Positions 1-11,263 of a stretch of 11,263 bases of DNA are shown here, one piece after another. This DNA comes from a virus (lineage: Duplodnaviria; Heunggongvirae; Uroviricota; Caudoviricetes), in the IMG/VR virus record IMGVR_UViG_2925914267_000008, positions 1 to 11,263 of that record; one strand, written 5' to 3'. Each line of letters opens with the position of its first letter. Position 1 is the first letter of the stretch. A model generated the notes under the pieces. That model was not told the DNA's origin and made no database searches. It saw nothing but the letters and a program-made list of their open reading frames with translations. The position numbers and the translations under genes are program-made.

Positions 1-1066
1 GTGGCCCTCAGTGATACCAAACTTCGTAGCATCAATGGTAAGCCCTACAGCGGCGCACCCGAAGTCACAGATGGTGACGGTTTGAGTGTGCGTATTACTC
101 CGACTGGAACGATTACATTTCAGCATCGATATCGCTGGAACGGTAAGCCTGTTCGCCTCTCTGTCGGCCGGTATCCTGCAATGTCCCTCAAAGAGGCCCG
201 CGTTATCGTCGGTGAGATGCGCGAATTGTACCTCAAGGGGCTAAACCCTAAAAATTATTTTGCCAAAGAAGATGGCGAGCTAACGCTCAAAGAGTGCCTG
301 GATCAGTGGTGGACTAAGTATGTTGAAACGCTGAAGCCTAATACCCAGACGCTGTATAAGTCGGTTGTGTACAACACCATGTACACAGAGTTCCCGGACG
401 CACCGGTCGTAAACATCCCCGTTTCGGCTTGGGTAAGGTTCTTCGACAAGCAGGAGAAGAAAAACGGGAAAAAGGCTCGGGTGCTGCTGCTCCAACTCCG
501 ATCCGTAATGAACTGGTGTATCAGCCGTCAGCTGATCCCTTCGTGCGAGGTGCTGAAACTCAGCGTTAAGACCATCGGCAAGAAACCAGACGTTGGTAGC
601 CGGGTACTCACTTATACCGAGCTGGCAAAAATCTGGTTAGCGCTGGAAAACAATAAGGTCGTTAGCTCCAATAAGGTTCTTCACCAGTTGCTGTTGCTCT
701 GGGGTGCGCGATTATCCGAACTGCGCCTGGCCACCGCAAGTGAGTTCAATATGGGCGATCTGATTTGGACGACGCCAGCCGAGCATTCCAAAATGGGAAA
801 TGTTATTCGTCGGCCTATATTCGACCAGGTTAAACCTTACATTGAAAGGCTTCTCAATGCTGGGAACGATATTCTTTTCCCGGGTCAGGAACTGGACAAG
901 GCTATAGATCGCTCCTCAGCCAATCTCTACATGAAAAAGTTAAGGGATAAAATTGATATACCGGAATGGCGAACCCACGACTTCAGGCGTTCTCTGGTAA
1001 CGAATTTGTCAGGGGAGGGGGTTATGCCCATAAGCGCTAACTTAAGGGTTGTGGTATTACGCCTGA
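1..1066 (+). pseudogene. P4-family tyrosine integrase, 3'-truncated by IS1
   Basis: GTG start at position 1. The N-terminus (MALSDTKLRSINGKPY...GDGLSVRITPTGTITFQHRYRWNGK...GRYPAMSLKEARV) fits the arm-binding domain pattern of P4-type integrases. An HxxR-like box (THDFRR) is present near the end, but the frame runs into the IS1 inverted repeat and stops at 1069-1071 before any catalytic tyrosine. Confidence 0.8.
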
Positions 1067-1089
1067 GGTAATGACTCCAACTTATTGAT
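1067..1089. repeat. IS1 terminal inverted repeat (insB-proximal end)
   Basis: Matches the canonical IS1 terminus as recalled; it is the imperfect inverted partner of 1812-1834. Confidence 0.85.
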
Positions 1090-1585
1090 AGTGTTTTATG
1101 TTCAGATAATGCCCGATGACTTTGTCATGCAGCTCCACCGATTTTGAGAACGACAGCGACTTCCGTCCCAGCCGTGCCAGGTGCTGCCTCAGATTCAGGT
1201 TATGCCGCTCAATTCGCTGCGTATATCGCTTGCTGATTACGTGCAGCTTTCCCTTCAGGCGGGATTCATACAGCGGCCAGCCATCCGTCATCCATATCAC
1301 CACGTCAAAGGGTGACAGCAGGCTCATAAGACGCCCCAGCGTCGCCATAGTGCGTTCACCGAATACGTGCGCAACAACCGTCTTCCGGAGCCTGTCATAC
1401 GCGTAAAACAGCCAGCGCTGGCGCGATTTAGCCCCGACGTATCCCCACTGTTCGTCCATTTCCGCGCAGACGATGACGTCACTGCCCGGCTGTATGCGCG
1501 AGGTTACCGACTGCGGCCTGAGTTTTTTAAGTGACGTAAAATCGTGTTGAGGCCAACGCCCATAATGCGGGCAGTTGCCCGGCAT
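1082..1585 (-). CDS. insB: IS1 InsB reading frame (expressed as InsAB' by -1 frameshift)
   Basis: The translation ...[70 protein letters not shown]... matches IS1 InsB. It overlaps the insA 3' end in the -1 frame. Confidence 0.85.
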
Positions 1586-1779
1586 CCAACGCCATTCATG
1601 GCCATATCAATGATTTTCTGGTGCGTACCGGGTTGAGAAGCGGTGTAAGTGAACTGCAGTTGCCATGTTTTACGGCAGTGAGAGCAGAGATAGCGCTGAT
1701 GTCCGGCGGTGCTTTTGCCGTTACGCACCACCCCGTCAGTAGCTGAACAGGAGGGACAGCTGATAGAAACAGAAGCCAC
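1504..1779 (-). CDS. insA: IS1 InsA (transposition inhibitor, N-terminal part of InsAB' transposase)
   Basis: The 91-aa translation [43 protein letters not shown]... is the IS1 InsA sequence as I recall it. Confidence 0.9.
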
Positions 1780-1811
1780 TGGAGCACCTCAAAAACACCA
1801 TCATACACTAA

Positions 1812-1834
1812 ATCAGTAAGTTGGCAGCATCACC
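1812..1834. repeat. IS1 terminal inverted repeat (insA-proximal end)
   Basis: Reverse complement reads GGTGATGCTGCCAACTTACTGAT, the canonical IS1 left end. The insA start lies 55 nt inside it. Confidence 0.85.
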
Positions 1835-2907
1835 CGACTTACGGTGAGCTGAAAGTCTGTGTTGACGGAGAATTTCGGGTCAGCACATCGAAGAGTGAAG
1901 GGCGTATTGTCCGCTTTGACCTGAAGTTTGTCGAAGCGGGAGAACTCTCTTACCCCACATCAGGTGCGGCGACGGCGCAGACGCTGATGTCATCCTGTTC
2001 TGCACTGGATGACTGCATCAGTGACAGTTTCAGTAGTTTCAGTATCGATGGCGTGGCAGATTTTGTGCAGAACGATGTCGTCGGTAATGCCAGCACAATG
2101 CTTGGGTATGTTTCTGATGCGATGAAAGTGGTGGATTCTGCCGTATCGGATGCCGCCAGGCTGTTGCAGGGGGATATCTCGGTACTTCTGCCGCCGCCAT
2201 CGTCAGGCAAAAATTTCGTTGAGCAGGTGCAGAAAATGTGGCGTACCGGGAAACGCCTTTATGGTAACGCCAGCGACCTGGTCACCATGATCAAAACGCT
2301 TTCCGGTGTCAGCCTCGGCAGCGATCTGCAACCGCGCGGCGTCTGGAAAACGGACAGTAAAACCACCGCCACGGCGACGCAGCAGCGTAACGTGGTTGCC
2401 AGCACCCTTCGTATGACCGCAATCAGCGAAGCGGCGTATGCCGTTACCCGATTGCCTGCGCCAACAACTTCTGCGGTGATGCAGAATGCCGCAGTGGGGC
2501 AGTCAACAACACCCGCGCAGAGCTCCGGCTGGCCTGCCGTCACGCATCCGGTGCTGAACAATGCACCGGCGGTGAAAAACACGGTTGACCTGCCAACGTG
2601 GGAAGAACTGACCGACATTCGCGACACACTGAATATGGCAATTGATAAGGAGTTGTCCCGTACAACCAGTGATGCGCTGTTTCTGGCGCTGCGCCGGGTG
2701 AAAGCAGATCTGAATGCGGATATCAACACGCGCCTTGAACAGTCTGCTCGGATCATTCAGCGCACGCCGGATGAGGTTTTACCCGCGCTGGTGCTGGCGG
2801 CGACCTGGTTTGATAACGCGGCGCGTGACGCGGACATTATCCGGCGTAATGCCATTACGCATCCCGGCTTTGTGCCGGTGATCCCTCTGAAGGTGCCAGT
2901 GCAATGA
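1835..2907 (+). pseudogene. Mu-type DNA circulation protein (N/gp43-like), 5'-truncated at the IS1 junction
   Basis: Frame 1 is open from the IS1 boundary at 1835 through the stop at 2905-2907. The first ATG is at 1987, with no plausible start or RBS before it. It sits directly upstream of the gp44/P-like gene, as in the Mu order N-P-Q. The family call rests on synteny and general resemblance, not on a search. Confidence 0.55.
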
Positions 2908-3983
2908 ACGACAATGTCACGCTACGGGTAAATGGCCGGGAGTGGAATGGCTGGACATCGGTGCGCATCGGTGCCGGTATTGAACGGCTGGCGCGGGATT
3001 TCAGCGTGGAGATCACCCGCCAGTGGCCGGGAGATGAGGGTATCACCACGCTTCAGCCGCGCATTAAAAATGGTTCAAAAGTGGAAGTGCTGATTGGTGA
3101 TGAGCTGGTGATCACCGGCTGGGTGGAGGCGACCCCCGTTCGTTACGATGCCCGTTCGGTCAGCACCGGTATTGCCGGACGTAGTCTGACTGCTGACCTG
3201 ATTGACTGTGCAGCCGAACCGACACAGTTTAACGGACGATCGCTGGTACAGATTGCGCAGGCGCTTGCTGCGCCTTTCGGCATTGAGGTGGTGAACAACG
3301 GTGCGCAGTCGGGTGTTATTCCTGACGTCCAGCCCGATCACGGTGAAACGGTGATTGAGGTAATCAACAAAATACTCGGTCAGCAGCAGGCACTGGCTTA
3401 CGACGACCCGCACGGCAGGCTGGTGATTGGTGGTATTGGCTCAACGCGGGCACATACTGCGCTGGTACTCGGGGAAAACATCCTTTCCTGCGATACGGAG
3501 AAGAGTATCCGGGAGCGGTTTTCAGTTTACCAGGTGGCGGGGCAGCGTGCCGGAAACGACGATGATTTCGGTGAGGCCACCACCACCGCGCTGCGGGCCC
3601 GCACAGAGGACGCATTTATTGCCCGTTACCGTCCGATGTATATCAGGCAGACAGGGCAGGCTACGGGGGCAGGCTGTATTGCCCGTGCGGACTTTGAAGC
3701 CCGACAACGGGCGGCGCGGACGGATGAAACCACCTATGTGGTGCAGGGCTGGCGACAGGGTAACGGTACGCTGTGGCAGCCCAACCAGCGGGTGATTGTC
3801 TTTGATCCGGTCTGTGGTTTCGACAATACCGAACTGCTTGTTTCGGAAGTCACGTTTACTCAGGACCAGAACGGCACCCTGACGGAAATCCGTGTCGGCC
3901 CGCCTGATGCTTATCTGCCTGAACCCGAAGCCCCCGGCGCGCGGAAAAAGAAAAAAGCCAGAGTACAGGAGGACCCGTTCTGA
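2904..3983 (+). CDS. Mu gp44 (P)-like baseplate hub protein
   Basis: 359-aa ORF whose start overlaps the upstream stop (ATGA at 2904-2907). Size, position and sequence character fit the Mu P/gp44 baseplate family. Confidence 0.75.
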   Translation: MNDNVTLRVNGREWNGWTSVRIGAGIERLARDFSVEITRQWPGDEGITTLQPRIKNGSKVEVLIGDELVITGWVEATPVRYDARSVSTGIAGRSLTADLIDCAAEPTQFNGRSLVQIAQALAAPFGIEVVNNGAQSGVIPDVQPDHGETVIEVINKILGQQQALAYDDPHGRLVIGGIGSTRAHTALVLGENILSCDTEKSIRERFSVYQVAGQRAGNDDDFGEATTTALRARTEDAFIARYRPMYIRQTGQATGAGCIARADFEARQRAARTDETTYVVQGWRQGNGTLWQPNQRVIVFDPVCGFDNTELLVSEVTFTQDQNGTLTEIRVGPPDAYLPEPEAPGARKKKKARVQEDPF

Positions 3984-4531
3984 TGAGGACGATTGAAGCC
4001 ATGCAGCGACAACTCCTCGGCCTGATTGGGCGGGCCGTGGTGAAAAGCATCAGTGCCGCCACGAAATGTCAGACCGTGGATGTGTTCCTGATTGCCGGTG
4101 AACCCAAAGCCGGGGTTGAACATCTTGAACCCTACGGTTTTACCGCAAGGGCAAACAGCGGTGCGGAAGCGGTGGTGTTGTTTCCGGATGGCGACCGTTC
4201 TCATGCGGTGGTTGTTACGGTGTCGGACCGTCGCTACCGCCTGAAAGGGCTGCAGACGGGTGAGGTGGCTGTCTATGACGATCAGGGGCAGTCCGTGACG
4301 CTGACCCGGGAGGGGATCGTGGTGGACGGTGCAGGTAAAACGATCACGTTTCGCAATGCACCTGAAGCACGTTTTGAAATGGACCTAGAAGTGACAGGAC
4401 AGGTGAAAGACCTGTGCGACTCCGGCGGCACCACCATGTCAGCGATGCGGCTTGCCTATAACGGGCATAGTCACAGAGAGAACGGTCAGGGCAGTAACAC
4501 CGACAAACCGGATAAAGCGATGGAGGCATGA
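3983..4531 (+). CDS. Mu gp45-like baseplate spike/assembly protein (gpV-type)
   Basis: 182-aa ORF whose start overlaps the upstream stop (TGATG at 3981-3985). Size and position fit Mu gp45. Confidence 0.75.
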   Translation: MRTIEAMQRQLLGLIGRAVVKSISAATKCQTVDVFLIAGEPKAGVEHLEPYGFTARANSGAEAVVLFPDGDRSHAVVVTVSDRRYRLKGLQTGEVAVYDDQGQSVTLTREGIVVDGAGKTITFRNAPEARFEMDLEVTGQVKDLCDSGGTTMSAMRLAYNGHSHRENGQGSNTDKPDKAMEA

Positions 4532-4956
4532 TGGAACTGTGGCTGACGGTGAACGGTAAACGCACCTGCGCCAGCGCACCGCTGGATCCGCTGACCCGCG
4601 CCGTGGTGATTTCCCTGTTTACCTGGCGGCGGGCGGAGCCTGATGACAACGCCGACGTCCCGATGGGATGGTGGGGGGATACCTGGCCTGCGGTACAGAA
4701 TGACCGTTACGGCTCCCGACTGTGGCTGCTTCAGCGCAGCAAACTGACCAATCAGCTGGTGCAGACGGTAAGGGGGTATATCCGCGAATGCCTGCAATGG
4801 ATGATTGATGATGGCGTGGTGTCCCGTATTGATCTGGATATCCGCCGCACCGGGATTAATGAACTGGGTAACAGTATCACTCTCTGGCGTCGTGACGGAC
4901 CGGTAATGATTTCTTTTGATGATCTGTGGAGTGCGATAACGCATGGCGGACAGTGA
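4528..4956 (+). CDS. Mu gp46-like baseplate protein (GP46 family)
   Basis: 142-aa ORF with ATGA overlap to the upstream gene. Size and synteny fit Mu gp46. Confidence 0.75.
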   Translation: MMELWLTVNGKRTCASAPLDPLTRAVVISLFTWRRAEPDDNADVPMGWWGDTWPAVQNDRYGSRLWLLQRSKLTNQLVQTVRGYIRECLQWMIDDGVVSRIDLDIRRTGINELGNSITLWRRDGPVMISFDDLWSAITHGGQ

Positions 4957-6001
4957 ATTTCAGCGCCCGACGCTGGCAGAAAATATCAGTATGCTCCGTA
5001 ACGATTTATTCGCCAGGCTGGACGTCAGCGACACGCTCCGGCGCATGGATGAAGACGTGCGGGCAAAGGTGTATGCGGCGGCGCTGCATACGGTTTACGG
5101 GTACATCGATTATCTGGCAATGAACATGCTGCCTGACCTGTGCGATGAGTCCTGGCTGGCGCGACATGCTGCGATGAAACGGTGTCCGCGCAAGGGGGCC
5201 ACGGCTGCCAGCGGGTATATGCGCTGGGAAGGTGTCAGCGATGGCCTGAAGGTGACCGCCGGGAGTGTTATTCAGCGCGATGACCTGGTTCAGTACACGG
5301 CAACTGCTGATGCAACCAGCTCCGGTGGTGTCCTGCGCGTGCCGATCACCTGCTCAACTACAGGCGTGGTCGGTAACGCTGACGACGGTACGGCATTAAT
5401 CCTGGTCACGCCGGTGAATGGTCTGCCGTCTTCCGGCGTGGCAGATACACTGACAGGTGGATTTGATACTGAAGAGCTGGAAACGTGGCGCGCCCGCGTC
5501 ATTGAGCGGTATTACTGGACGCCTCAGGGCGGGGCTGACGGGGACTATGTCGTCTGGGCTAAAGAAGTACCCGGCATTACCCGCGCATGGACATACCGAC
5601 ACTGGATGGGAACGGGGACTGTCGGTGTGATGATTGCCAGCAGTGACCTGATTAATCCCATTCCGGAAGAGTCAACGGAAACGGCGGCAAGACAACATAT
5701 CGGGCCACTGGCCCCGGTGGCAGGCTCTGATTTGTATGTATTCAGGCCGGTGGCGCATAAAGTGGATTTTCATATCCGCGTGACGCCGGACACACCGGAA
5801 ATACGGGCTGCCATCACCGCCGAGTTGCGTTCGTTCCTGCTGCGTGATGGTTATCCGCAGGGAGAACTGAAGGTGTCACGTATCAGTGAAGCGATTTCCG
5901 GTACGAACGGGGAATACAGCCATCAGTTGCTTGCCCCGGCGGACAATATCTCCATTGCAAAAAATGAGCTGGCGGTTCTGGGGACGATTTCATGGACGTG
6001 A
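4943..6001 (+). CDS. Mu gp47-like baseplate wedge protein (Baseplate_J family)
   Basis: 352-aa ORF overlapping the previous gene by 14 nt. Size and synteny fit Mu gp47 / P2 gpJ-type proteins. Confidence 0.8.
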
Positions 6002-6576
6002 CAAACGATGATTATATCCGTCTGTTGTCGGCACTGTTGCCGCCCGGTCCGGCGTGGTCAGTCAGCGATCCGGCGATTGCCGGTGCGGCACCGTCATTAA
6101 CCCGCGTTCATCAGCGTGCGGATGCCCTGATGCGGGAGCTGGATCCGCGCACCACCACTGAACTGATAAACCGCTGGGAGCGTCTGTGCGGTCTGCCGGA
6201 TGAATGTATTCCCGCAGGGACACAGACCCTTCGCCAGCGTCAGCAACGGCTGGATGCGAAGGTTAATCTGGCGGGCGGCATCAATGAGGATTTTTATCTT
6301 GCACAGCTTGCTGCCCTGGGCAGACCAGACGCCACTATCACGCGATACGATAAAAGCACGTTCACCTGCTCATCGGCCTGTACTGACGCAGTGAATGCGC
6401 CGGAATGGCGGTATTACTGGCAGGTCAACATGCCAGCCGCCACCAACACCACCTGGATGACATGTGGCGATCCCTGTGATTCCGCACTGCGTATCTGGGG
6501 CGACACCGTTGTCGAGTGCGTGCTTAACAAACTCTGCCCTTCGCATACCTACGTAATTTTTAAATATCCGGAGTAA
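5992..6576 (+). CDS. Mu gp48-like tail protein (DUF2313 / YmfQ-like)
   Basis: 194-aa ORF overlapping the previous gene by 10 nt. It resembles the YmfQ/gp48 family found just upstream of tail-fibre genes in Mu-like and e14-like tails. Confidence 0.75.
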
Positions 6577-6579
6577 TCC

Positions 6580-7092
6580 ATGCATCGTATAGACACGAAA
6601 ACCGCGCAGAAGGATAAGTTCGGCGCGGGTAAGAACGGTTTTACCCGTGGTAACCCCCAGACCGGCACACCTGCCACCGATCTGGATGATGACTACTTTG
6701 ACATGTTGCAGGAAGAACTTTGTAGCGTTGTTGAGGCATCCGGTGCCAGTCTGGAGAAGGCGCGGCACGACCAGCTGCTTACCGCACTTCGTGCGCTGCT
6801 GTTAAGCCGCAAGAATCCGTTTGGCGATATCAAATCGGATGGCACTGTGCAAACGGCTCTCGAAAACCTTCAATTGCGAGAATCATTCACAGGTGTGGTT
6901 GGTCAGGCCGTTAACCAGAAAATGAGCGTGGCAATAGCGTCGGCATCAGCAACATTCACCGCTGACCAGGTTATTGTTGGTGAGTCATTATCTGGCAAGC
7001 AGTACCGTGTAAGTTCGGTAAGCGAAACTATCAACCTCACCACGACTGGGGCGGGCGGGATGGATACAGGAGCAGCCCCTGCCAGTGGTTGA
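6580..7092 (+). CDS. Phage tail fibre protein, N-terminal part, ending at an in-frame TGA
   Basis: The start [47 protein letters not shown] is a conserved tail-fibre N-terminus. The ATG is 4 nt after the gp48-like stop, with GGAG upstream. The frame ends at TGA 7090-7092. Confidence 0.7.
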
Positions 7093-7626
7093 GTTGCTAT
7101 TTACCTTATTTACAACCCAACGACCAACACCTCAGCATTACTTGGTGTTAACACGACAACCGTCGTTGCGCCCACAGTCTACGGCGGTGCAAACATGCCA
7201 GCGGGATATACGGCGAGCGCACTCGTATCCGTCTGGAGAACAACAAGCGGCTCTTTGCTTCTGAATGGGTACCAGCGAGGTCGAAAATTTTGCATCCCGC
7301 GTGTAGATGTACTGACCACAAGCAGTAACCCAGGACCATACTCACCAATCCCTCTTAGCGCAGCCGTACCGCTAAACGCTATAGCAGCGAGTGGTTACGC
7401 ATTCTGTAACTCAGGCTCTGGTTCTGGGTTTGCGGTTTTGTCTGTCGGGTCTGATGCAAATGGGCTTGGGTATTTTCAGGTGTATGCCGGGCTGGTTGGT
7501 TCGCTAGGGAGCGATATCTATTTTGAGAATACCCTCGCTGAACCTCAAAAACTTTACTACACGTTTACCTGGACAACGCCAGCAGTGTCAAATGCCACCA
7601 TTGGGATAAGCGGTTATACGATCTAA
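7093..7626 (+). pseudogene. Tail fibre distal part, in the same frame as 6580..7092 across one TGA
   Basis: Same frame as the upstream tail-fibre ORF, with no further stop from 7093 to 7626. The 34 codons between the TGA and the first ATG (7195) read as Thr/Asn/Ser/Val/Gly-rich, fibre-like sequence, and there is no RBS ahead of 7195. Confidence 0.45.
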
Positions 7627-8022: not shown

Positions 8023-9273
8023 TTATATTTTTGCTTTGCTGATAAAATTATCTAGGGTTTTTCCTACGGTGCGGCTAAGTATCACTGATTTTTTCTCTAT
8101 TAATTGATAAAATATCATTGAACCAATTAAAGAAAGAGTGACGAATACTAAAAAGGAAGCAATGTATGCTAAATAAACGTTATTTGTATGAATATATACA
8201 TATAGGTTTATTGGCATTATTGCAGATGAAAGAACTAACCAGTGAACAAGGTATAAAGAGAAAGAAATTTTCCCAAAAAATTGAACAAGTTTAGTGGATA
8301 GGAAATCGCGAATGTATCCTCTGGACATTACTAGAATTAGCAATAATATTGCACCGACACCACGTAAAAACTCGTATGGGTGGTAAGGGAACATCCCAGG
8401 AATCGATAAGTCTTGCATGTTTATTAATGGGGCAACAAAATAGTTCCCTGGTATAAAAATCCAACCCCAGGGATAGAATACCGGGCAACTTTGAAGTATC
8501 ACTATAGCTAATATCATTAGCAAAGTAATAACGTATTTTTCTTTGTTGTTAAATAAATTGCTTGTTTTTTCGTCGGCAAACAAGATGGATATCCATGCGC
8601 CAATGAGAAGAAAAAACACATAATATCCGTAACTAAAGATAGTAAATAAAAATAATAAAAGAATGCCATGCCTTGAGTTATTTCTTCCTACCTGAGCAAC
8701 AATTAATAGTAACAGCGAGCCCATAAACTCAGTCGACATTGACCATATTACAGGGTTAAGAAATCTAGTTGAAAAATCTGTGGTATATAGCGTAAGAATG
8801 CCTTGCTTTATTACTTCATCGAAAGCTACATTTTCATCGTGATCATAACGAAATCCAGATTTTACTAAGATATATCCAATAATACAGGAAGCAAATACAG
8901 GAACACCAAGTCGAATAAAACGACGTATTAATGATGCTATAAATGTTGTATTTGCTTTGAAGGCGCCAAGAAGAATTGCGCCAGATAAGATGAAAAAAAC
9001 TATAGTAGCAAAATTACCATTGATAGTGAATACGAATGGTGTCGTTTCAGTAAATTCGTAGAATTTTGAAAGCCAATAAGGGAATGCATCTGGGTAGTGT
9101 GAAAGCATAAAAAGCTTTGTTTCACCAAAAAAATGACCATAAGCAACAATTATAGCCATTAGTCCGCGTAACCCATCAAAATATAGGATTCTGTTCTTTT
9201 TTTGTTCCAATTTATTGAACCTCATCATTTCAAAATAGTGAGCAATGATAGTGTTAAGAGTGTAGTAAAGCAA
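8023..9273 (-). CDS. Acyltransferase family 3 integral membrane protein (Oac/OafA-like O-acetyltransferase candidate)
   Basis: The N-terminal motif RILYFDGLRGLMAIIVAYGHFFGE and the later FFILSGAIL segment are typical of the acyltransferase-3 family. The protein is very hydrophobic with many predicted helices. The gene is AT-rich (roughly 30% GC) against GC-rich neighbours. The start is uncertain: TTG at 9273 with GAAGG upstream, or ATG at 9228 or 9225. Confidence 0.85.
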   Translation of the reverse strand: MLYYTLNTIIAHYFEMMRFNKLEQKKNRILYFDGLRGLMAIIVAYGHFFGETKLFMLSHYPDAFPYWLSKFYEFTETTPFVFTINGNFATIVFFILSGAILLGAFKANTTFIASLIRRFIRLGVPVFASCIIGYILVKSGFRYDHDENVAFDEVIKQGILTLYTTDFSTRFLNPVIWSMSTEFMGSLLLLIVAQVGRNNSRHGILLLFLFTIFSYGYYVFFLLIGAWISILFADEKTSNLFNNKEKYVITLLMILAIVILQSCPVFYPWGWIFIPGNYFVAPLINMQDLSIPGMFPYHPYEFLRGVGAILLLILVMSRGYIRDFLSTKLVQFFGKISFSLYLVHWLVLSSAIMPINLYVYIHTNNVYLAYIASFLVFVTLSLIGSMIFYQLIEKKSVILSRTVGKTLDNFISKAKI

Positions 9274-9405: not shown

Positions 9406-10232
9406 CATACCACGGGGGCATTCTGATGAAATCAGAAAAATAGACAGGGTAATAGCTATCGATTGATGATGGTGGTTGCTATGCTTCATATAGAGTTTCC
9501 GATACTATCACGCACATTATTAATGATAGCAGAACGGTGGAGTTTAATGGTTGGCCAAGCCTTGTTGAACAATGGTTAATCATGCTGTTTTAATATACCT
9601 TCTTTGGAGAAAAATGCTAACAACTCCAACGTGCATTGCCCGAGATTGGCTGTAACCATAATAATTTTATGGAGTTTATTGAATAAACCCGAGTTAGTAG
9701 ACAGGATGACGCCTACCGGAACACCCGTTATGCGATGCGGACGCTGTCCGGCATACCCAGCACGGTCATCCGGTTTAGCGCTTTGACCATCGCCGTTTCT
9801 GCCACTGAACGACGGTGATAACCCACTTTCTTTTTCCAAACATAATTGCTGGATAGGGTCAGGGTTATTATGATGCTTGGAATTATCGAACGCTGCCGCA
9901 GAATGTTAGAGAACGGAGCAATCCGGCAACGTGATCGGTGTGGGGGTAAAGACGATTTATAAATACTTTCCTGTCACAAGTCCAGCGCGTAATGCCAGTT
10001 CCCGAGTGTAGGTATGATCATGAAAAAGTGGTGCGCACCTAAATATCTTTAATACAGGCGTAGGATGCCATGCATTAGGATCGGGTTAAACAGGGATGTT
10101 TACGTTCTGGAAAACTGCCCGCAGATAGCCGGCGTGATCTAGAATGATTTTTGTGTACATATATGTGTACTGTACAAAAGAAGATTTGGCTTTTAATTTC
10201 AATAAAAACAATAAATTGAATTGTTTTTAAAA

Positions 10233-10255
10233 TATATCCATTTAACTAAGAGGAC
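10233..10255 (-). tRNA. argW: tRNA-Arg (argW) 5' fragment, first 23 nt only
   Basis: The minus strand reads GTCCTCTTAGTTAAATGGATATA, identical to the first 23 nt of E. coli argW as I recall it, and lies 75 nt downstream of yfdC as expected. The next bases (TTTTAAAAACAATTC...) are AT-rich and cannot form the rest of a tRNA. Confidence 0.55.
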
Positions 10256-10330
10256 AATGCGGCATGAGTATACCCGCTAATGGAGTGCGGGGTAAGTACG
10301 CTGCCGCTCGATTGCTTAAACCCTCGCCAT

Positions 10331-11263
10331 TTATGCCGGGTTTTTATAATTTTTCTTAATGTTTTCCGCACGTTCTGCTTTTTGGCGTGCTTCTGCTTTA
10401 CGCTTATTGCTCATGTCGTTACGAATCTGTGCATGACTCATTAACGCGAAGATAAAGGTGCCGCCGCAGATGTTCCCCGCTAAAGTAGGTAGTGCGAAGG
10501 GCCAGATGAAATCGCTCCAGTGCAGCGTACCGTTAAACACCAGATAGAGGATTTCAACAGAACCGACCACGATATGGGTGGTGTCACCCAGGGCAATAAG
10601 CCAGGTCATCAATATAATCACCACAATCTTTGCCGCACCCGCTGCAGGAAACATCCAAACCATAGTGGCGATCAGCCAGCCGGAAATGATCGCGTTGGCA
10701 AACATCTCGCTGGGGGTGTTCTTCATCACATCCATGCCGATTTTGACAAATGCATCGCGAGTTTCTTCATTGAAGATAGGCATATATTCAAATGCCCACG
10801 CCGCAATACCTGTCCCGAGAATATTACCCAGCAGCACGACGCCCCATAACCGTATAAGTAAGCCGACGTTGCTCATTGTCGGTTTTTGCATGACGGGTAG
10901 TACCGCAGTCACGGTATTTTCGGTAAATAATTGCTGGCGGGCCATAATGACGATAATAAAACCAAAGGTATAACCGAGATTCTCCAGCAAGAAGCTGCCC
11001 GGCACACCTTCCAGTTCGACTTGAAATATCCCTTTTGCCAGTAACGAAGCGCCCATCGACAGACCCGCCGCAATGGCTGACCACAGTAGCGCCATTGCGT
11101 CGCGTTCCAGCTCTTTTTCACCATCCTGGCGGATATGCTCATGAATTGCCATCGCCCGGGAGGGGAGTCGGTCTTCATCTATTTCTATTTTTTTGCCGCG
11201 CTCTTTTTCTTCGCTCTCAACTTCAATTTCGTCGCTGTGTTGATCAATTTTGTCGTTGTCCAT
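10331..11263 (-). CDS. yfdC: Formate/nitrite transporter family inner membrane protein YfdC
   Basis: The 310-aa translation (MDNDKIDQHSDEIEVESEEKERGKK...NYKNPA) matches E. coli YfdC as recalled. It is a full-length ORF whose start codon is the last three bases of the window. Confidence 0.9.
   Translation of the reverse strand: MDNDKIDQHSDEIEVESEEKERGKKIEIDEDRLPSRAMAIHEHIRQDGEKELERDAMALLWSAIAAGLSMGASLLAKGIFQVELEGVPGSFLLENLGYTFGFIIVIMARQQLFTENTVTAVLPVMQKPTMSNVGLLIRLWGVVLLGNILGTGIAAWAFEYMPIFNEETRDAFVKIGMDVMKNTPSEMFANAIISGWLIATMVWMFPAAGAAKIVVIILMTWLIALGDTTHIVVGSVEILYLVFNGTLHWSDFIWPFALPTLAGNICGGTFIFALMSHAQIRNDMSNKRKAEARQKAERAENIKKNYKNPA

Follow-up and report, generated by a model that had tools for sequence, protein, structure and literature searches.

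The window, by which we mean the whole stretch of 11,263 nucleotides that was analyzed, contains the remains of a prophage and the host gene yfdC, which borders it (Table 1). The prophage part begins with an integrase gene, which is followed by an IS1 element, a tail module and a cargo gene, and it ends in AT-rich DNA that runs directly into a short piece of the tRNA gene argW.

Table 1. Features of the window and composition of the attachment sites
Feature	Coordinates	Strand	Basis or composition
Predicted integrase pseudogene, P4-like tyrosine recombinase	1..1071	+	Pfam Arm-DNA-bind_3 and Phage_integrase
37-nt segment between the end of integrase homology and IS1	1030..1066	.	
IS1, 768 bp	1067..1834	-	Pfam transposase; IS1 ends located
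Mu-like tail module: 3' part of a DNA-circularisation/hub gene, gp44/45/46/47/48-like baseplate genes, tail-fibre fragments	1835..7626	+	Pfam, PHROGs
Acyltransferase_3 gene, putative O-antigen acetylase (lysogenic-conversion type)	8023..9273	-	Pfam, PHROGs
P' arm of the att site, AT-rich	10152..10232	-	
argW nt 1-23; host-derived att-core copy, or displaced 5' tRNA-gene fragment	10233..10255	-	Exact match
Native yfdC-argW spacer, host argW promoter region	10256..10330	-	Identical to the uninterrupted ER1709 locus
yfdC, host flanking gene	10331..11263	-	
attB			Host upstream DNA - core (argW nt 1-24) - tRNA remainder
attP			Phage P arm - core (argW nt 1-24) - phage P' arm
attL			Phage P arm - core (argW nt 1-24) - tRNA remainder
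attR			Host upstream DNA - core (argW nt 1-24) - phage P' arm

The two Pfam domains of the integrase were matched with E-values of 9e-18 (Arm-DNA-bind_3) and 6e-12 (Phage_integrase). Along 343 aa, its product shares 95% identity with the integrase of E. coli EC7, a protein of 389 aa. The homology to the 389-aa relatives stops at aa 343 (nt 1029), and the open reading frame ends at codon 356. The last 46 residues are missing, among them the GH...Y catalytic segment (GH...VY in EC7) with the C-terminal His and Tyr. Judged by its sequence, the gene is a pseudogene of the P4-like family; a homologue in phage 86 was labeled by its depositors as a "bacteriophage P4 like integrase". The similarity to IntS is weak (35% identity along 71 aa of the N-terminal part, E=7e-10).

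The 37 nt that separate the end of the integrase homology from IS1 have a match, among the loci that we fetched, only in a sibling contig described below. Because of this segment, the truncation of the integrase cannot be attributed simply to the present IS1 insertion. The IS1 element connects the truncated integrase to a truncated DNA-circularisation/baseplate-hub gene. From about position 1835 to its end, the window is collinear with three other loci (L005, L006 and L008) with 4-6 mismatches, and in these the prophage runs on into genes for the tape measure, the tube and the sheath. Hence, IS1 marks a large internal deletion. The tail-fibre gene seems to be split into a 170-aa N-terminal reading frame (6580-7092) and a 143-aa C-terminal one (7195-7626), which appears to be a further sign of prophage decay. 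Just 3' of the acyltransferase gene, a terminator scan found a terminator-like hairpin at 8016-7993 on the minus strand. An 87-aa reading frame between this gene and the P' arm (9576-9839, minus strand) is called as a gene in one related assembly (L007) and has no match in Pfam or PHROGs.

The two ends of the prophage

The first 23 nucleotides of argW, GTCCTCTTAGTTAAATGGATATA, as given by the annotated tRNA-Arg of E. coli ER1709 (L015), have a single copy in the window, on the minus strand (10233-10255) and with 0 mismatches, and were matched in 0 of 200 shuffled windows. Position 24 of this stub is a T where argW has an A, and no likeness to argW is found beyond it. Even when up to 3 mismatches are allowed, the window has no match to nucleotides 24-61 of argW. 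ARAGORN detects no tRNA in it, and an Rfam search of 9800-10700 at E<=10 returned chance matches only and no tRNA. On the yfdC side, a comparison with ER1709 shows that the 100 nt next to the stub are the native yfdC-argW spacer. The unoccupied site can be seen in the K-12-like genomes among the matches listed, such as ER1709, which align with the window from exactly position 10233 and continue through a contiguous argW. The host argW promoter should therefore be within 10256-10330, where it would be orphaned and would point into the prophage.

An earlier note on this DNA had argW cut after nt 23 with its promoter-side (5') part at the integrase-distal end of the prophage. The description is accurate. 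The stub is identical to nt 1-23 of the annotated ER1709 gene and is followed by nothing argW-like, the native upstream spacer adjoins the stub, and neither ARAGORN on the window nor Rfam on 9800-10700 detects a complete tRNA-Arg near it. The integrase is indeed about 10 kb from the stub and on the opposite strand.

The integrase-proximal junction lies beyond the reach of the window record, and it was read from a sibling contig, LRKM01000242.1 (L011), which was found by an exact look-up of the truncated integrase. The last 1552 nt of this contig are identical to positions 1-1552 of the window, and the identity spans the unique junction of the integrase, the 37-nt segment and IS1. The window's own junction or P arm is present at high identity in no complete RefSeq E. 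coli genome. In the sibling contig, a complete 75-nt tRNA-Arg(CCU) is located at 9731-9805. It is divergent from the integrase, has the same strand as the stub, lies 195 bp upstream of the integrase start and adjoins dsdC. As a full argW is present beside the integrase, nt 1-23 are duplicated in direct orientation. The earlier note had predicted nt 24-75 of argW upstream of the integrase; the remainder of the gene is there, but as a part of the full 75-nt gene.

A comparison of the two copies shows that the full argW begins with GCCCCCT, whereas the stub carries the host form GTCCTCT. This difference implies that the 5' end on the integrase side is derived from the phage and that the exchange took place 3' of nt 5. 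Together, two polymorphisms place the crossover, in all probability, between nt 6 and nt 23 of argW, in the D-arm region. In the full copy, C2 faces A71, and this acceptor-stem mismatch, seen in 1 of the 19 argW copies compared, would be a consequence of the phage-supplied 5' end. The tRNA may be impaired in the window-type lineage.

Prophages with the same integrase family have the same two ends. In EC7, the dsdC-side end of a siphovirus-like prophage carries a full argW that diverges from int, and the yfdC-side end carries an argW 5' stub with an AT-rich arm. The Stx2a prophage of O157:H7 strain ECP19-598 has the same two junctions. In both EC7 and O157:H7, the two junctions are read within single complete chromosomes. 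Records of Stx2a prophages in the LC6454xx series (e.g. LC645451) carry an annotated 24-bp "duplication due to insertion" at both ends. In a scan of integrase orthologues (at least 67% identity, one genome per species), a tRNA-Arg(CCU) is found in the divergent orientation about 195 bp upstream of int in 15 of 16, from about ten named genera that include Enterobacter, Pantoea, Erwinia, Salmonella, Xenorhabdus, Proteus, Tatumella, Rosenbergiella and Rouxiella; the contig that carries the remaining orthologue ends 208 bp upstream of int. Nucleotides 6-25 of argW are almost invariant across the hosts of these orthologues. More distant relatives of the integrase in Gilliamella and Orbus (L032-L034, 59-63% identity) lack a tRNA in the 3 kb upstream of them and presumably use another site. 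In ECP19-598 (L003, 816-3574), a single argW is located between intS on its 3' side and the second integrase on its 5' side, and so the DNA upstream and downstream of this argW is derived from prophages in both directions.

The phage form of the site was found in two genomes. In the circular genome of Stx2 phage 86 (AB255436), an attP with argW nt 1-24 lies between the late or cargo genes and int, and Hafnia phage yong2 (MZ516527) has an attP with argW nt 1-23 in the same position. For the set formed by O157 and phage 86, attB, attP, attL and attR agree with one another exactly. For the phage type of the window itself, a free genome was not found. Two records that seemed to contain a full tRNA-Arg within a phage, vB_EcoS-716R3 and 733R5, were considered as sources of attP and set aside, as they are partial, prophage-derived and contain host csc genes.

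Arms of the attachment site

At 10152-10232, an alignment of the window with the P' arms of EC7, O157:H7 and related prophages becomes possible. GTAC-containing repeats are found at 10153-10180, and the combination GTAC...ATATGTACAC is present 60-90 nt from the core in the P' arms of all four phage types compared. We infer that these repeats are candidate arm-type integrase sites; over the whole window the motif TGTACNC is not enriched (5 found, 4.6 expected), and the assignment is drawn solely from local clustering and conservation across phages. The geometry of the arm resembles the layout of H' plus P'1-3 in the attP of lambda.

The earlier note also described a 9-bp inverted repeat with a 7-nt loop next to the stub. 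The repeat is real and its loop was given correctly, but its perfect stem is one base longer, 10 bp (10203-10212 and 10220-10229). In shuffles of the 93-nt stretch (80% A+T), a perfect hairpin of at least 10 bp was formed in 0.7-0.8% and one of at least 9 bp in 2-3%, so that the repeat is modestly above chance in a test that was picked after the repeat had been seen. It is located 10-35 nt from the core, where it overlaps an IHF-like site with one mismatch. At the same offset, phage 86 has a perfect IHF consensus. We infer that the repeat marks an IHF-type bending site.

When the P arms of five integrase-proximal sites are aligned, three GTAC blocks are invariant, namely TATCCTGTACACA, ATTCTGTACTCAAT and TGTACGCA, and these are probably arm-type integrase sites as well. 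About 40 nt upstream of the tRNA start there is an element of the form TTGAT(G/T)-N18-TA(AC/TT)AT, which is conserved in four otherwise diverged P arms and which is a likely phage-borne promoter of the rebuilt argW. A crude promoter scan called no promoter for the rebuilt argW and missed the native argW promoter as well.

Origin of the junction

These findings are in agreement with ordinary site-specific entry of a phage into argW. With a probability of about 95%, a decayed prophage ends here in its integrase-distal att junction, which would be called attR in lambda, and the stub is the scar that phages inserting into the 5' part of argW normally leave at their far end. The tyrosine integrase would use an attB within the 5' part of the gene, with an identity block from nt 1 to nt 22-24, and the attP would combine an argW 5' segment with the phage's own upstream DNA. 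Recombination between the two would rebuild a complete argW beside the integrase, with the 5' part and the upstream DNA supplied by the phage and nt 24-75 and the downstream DNA by the host. The host promoter and the 23-nt stub would stay at the other end of the prophage, next to yfdC, and the AT-rich DNA beyond the stub would be the phage P' arm. Later decay would have removed the C-terminus of the integrase and left IS1 joining the truncated gene to the tail genes, with most of the prophage gone, and an element decayed in this way would not be excised by its own enzyme. The arrangement that we observe is a full argW at one end and, at the other, a 5' fragment in the same orientation and upstream of the full gene. 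The integrase is inside the element and near one of its ends (1-1071 in the window, 195 bp from the full argW of the sibling contig). This is the layout expected of an integrative element that targets a tRNA gene and leaves a 5' fragment.

The earlier note had preferred an inversion, or another chromosomal rearrangement, with a breakpoint at argW nt 23/24 that separated the promoter-proximal part from nt 24-75. The stub is indeed at the integrase-distal end with the rest of argW beside the integrase, and IS1 and the deletion are evidence of rearrangement elsewhere in the prophage. However, the argW on the integrase side is of full length and both ends carry nt 1-23 as direct repeats, and an inversion would neither duplicate these nucleotides nor keep their orientation. 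Moreover, the position of the breakpoint varies by no more than 1-2 nt among unrelated prophages and coincides with the end of the argW segment in the attP of free phages, and IS1 is about 8.4 kb away from the stub. We consider the inversion to be very improbable and reject it. An assembly artefact that joined yfdC and argW to phage DNA, which the note had also allowed for, would account for the unusual look of the junction and for nothing else. The identical junction is present, with the same acyltransferase, in at least five independent assemblies (L005, L006, L007, L009 and L010), which excludes such an artefact for practical purposes; homologous junctions are found in the complete genomes of EC7, p10A/B, O157:H7 and O111. 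There is hardly more room for a Mu-like transposable phage that disrupted argW by a more or less random insertion. The tail and baseplate genes are Mu-like, but no transposase gene other than the one in IS1 is present, the integrase is of the tyrosine type, and a full argW is regenerated. The junction is also fixed, being the same as in lambdoid and siphovirus prophages with this integrase and as in the attP of free phages. The chance of a random insertion of this kind is minute.

A different question is whether, given site-specific integration as described above, the inverted repeat might function as an RNA hairpin, a weak terminator or processing signal for transcripts that start at the orphaned promoter. 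The 10-bp perfect stem comes right after the stub, its 3' arm is U-rich, and it is rarer than expected by chance at roughly the 1% level. On the other hand, the stem has one G-C pair and no G-C-rich base, the terminator scan is negative there, and the RNA fold of the region is unremarkable (z = -1.15). The P' arms of EC7 and yong2 are without a comparable hairpin. The lack of conservation and the unremarkable fold make a role in RNA less likely than a role as a binding site in DNA, and a role at the DNA level is in better agreement with phage 86, which has an IHF-like site at this offset. We regard an RNA hairpin as quite unlikely, and the preferred reading of the repeat is that of a part of the P' arm.

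Site-specific integration into the 5' part of argW leaves the stub, the orphaned promoter and the acyltransferase gene on one strand. Between 10255 and 7993 on the minus strand, the terminator scan found no terminator-like site from the orphan argW promoter to the end of the acyltransferase gene. The host tRNA promoter could consequently drive lysogen-specific expression of the cargo, a case of promoter capture that we regard as possible but rather unlikely. A broader proposal, which we treat as doubtful, is that the integrase family defines a D-arm-centred crossover on the 5' side of the tRNA gene and leaves the host promoter aimed at the co-directional acyltransferase. If this were true, the crossover would fall outside the usually listed anticodon, T-loop and T/acceptor-junction sites, the phage would have to bring a replacement promoter for argW (the TTGAT(G/T)-N18-TA..AT element), and a host tRNA promoter would be left pointing into the prophage.

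Relation to known systems

The site itself is well known, argW being a standard integration site of Stx2a phages in O157:H7 and other STEC (PMC8309913, PMC9997748, PMC4587872, PMC7946995). The Stx2a prophages at argW (O157:H7 clade 8 and other STEC; phage 86 and the LC6454xx records) have the integrase family and the attB in common with the window element. Like it, they show a duplication of 22-24 bp of the argW 5' end with the stub beside yfdC, and like the window type they have, about 195 bp before int, a full argW that diverges from it. At the DNA level, the window integrase matches the integrase regions of Stx2a phages at about 75%. Unlike the lambdoid Stx phages, the window element combines a Mu-like contractile-tail module with an acyltransferase cargo, and it has an IS1-associated deletion and a truncated integrase. 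Hafnia phage yong2 has the same order of modules as the window, i.e. a tail fibre, a reverse-strand cargo of the acetyltransferase type, an attP with the argW 5' segment, and int. It differs in the host genus, in its cargo genes and in being a complete phage genome.

The integrases of the IntS type (KplE1 or CPS-53, HK620 and Sf6-type) share with the window element the target argW and a tyrosine integrase with arm-type sites. Integration by IntS takes place at the 3' end of argW, with a 16-nt core, CTGCAGGGGACACCAT (PMC2951348). The window has no copy of this core even when up to 3 mismatches are allowed, and the junction is thus not of the IntS/KplE1 type. Whereas IntS is located downstream of argW, is co-directional with it and leaves a 3' fragment, the window integrase targets the 5' part. 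The two integrase families are unrelated and act at opposite ends of the 75-bp argW, so that the gene can sit between two prophages, as in O157:H7. On the end of argW at which such phages integrate, a phrase search of the literature yielded the IntS paper only (PMC2951348). Divergent integrase-tRNA pairs are recognized there as a rare class (PMC2951348).

The earlier note had argued from the rule that tRNA-targeting elements leave a 3' fragment. This is what usually happens, but the rule is not universal, as islands with a 5' fragment have been catalogued. In the Islander collection, a 5' fragment of the tRNA gene lies upstream of the full gene in 159 of 3919 islands (PMC4383910). These "islands with 5' tDNA fragment" have the same layout as the window element, with a full tRNA gene and a 5' fragment upstream of it in the same orientation. 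The subsites in the Islander table are centred on the anticodon or on the T-stem/junction only, whereas the fragment in the window ends at nt 22-24, in the D-arm.

Targeting of the 5' side is a property of a minority of integrases, and the elements that do so must supply the promoter of the tRNA gene. For annotation, a 5' tRNA stub at the end of a prophage should be read as an expected scar and not as a rearrangement or a lost tRNA. The junction in the window contains little new biology, and its value is mainly for annotation and for scans. In summary, it is an instance of an already known, uncommon configuration at a known site.
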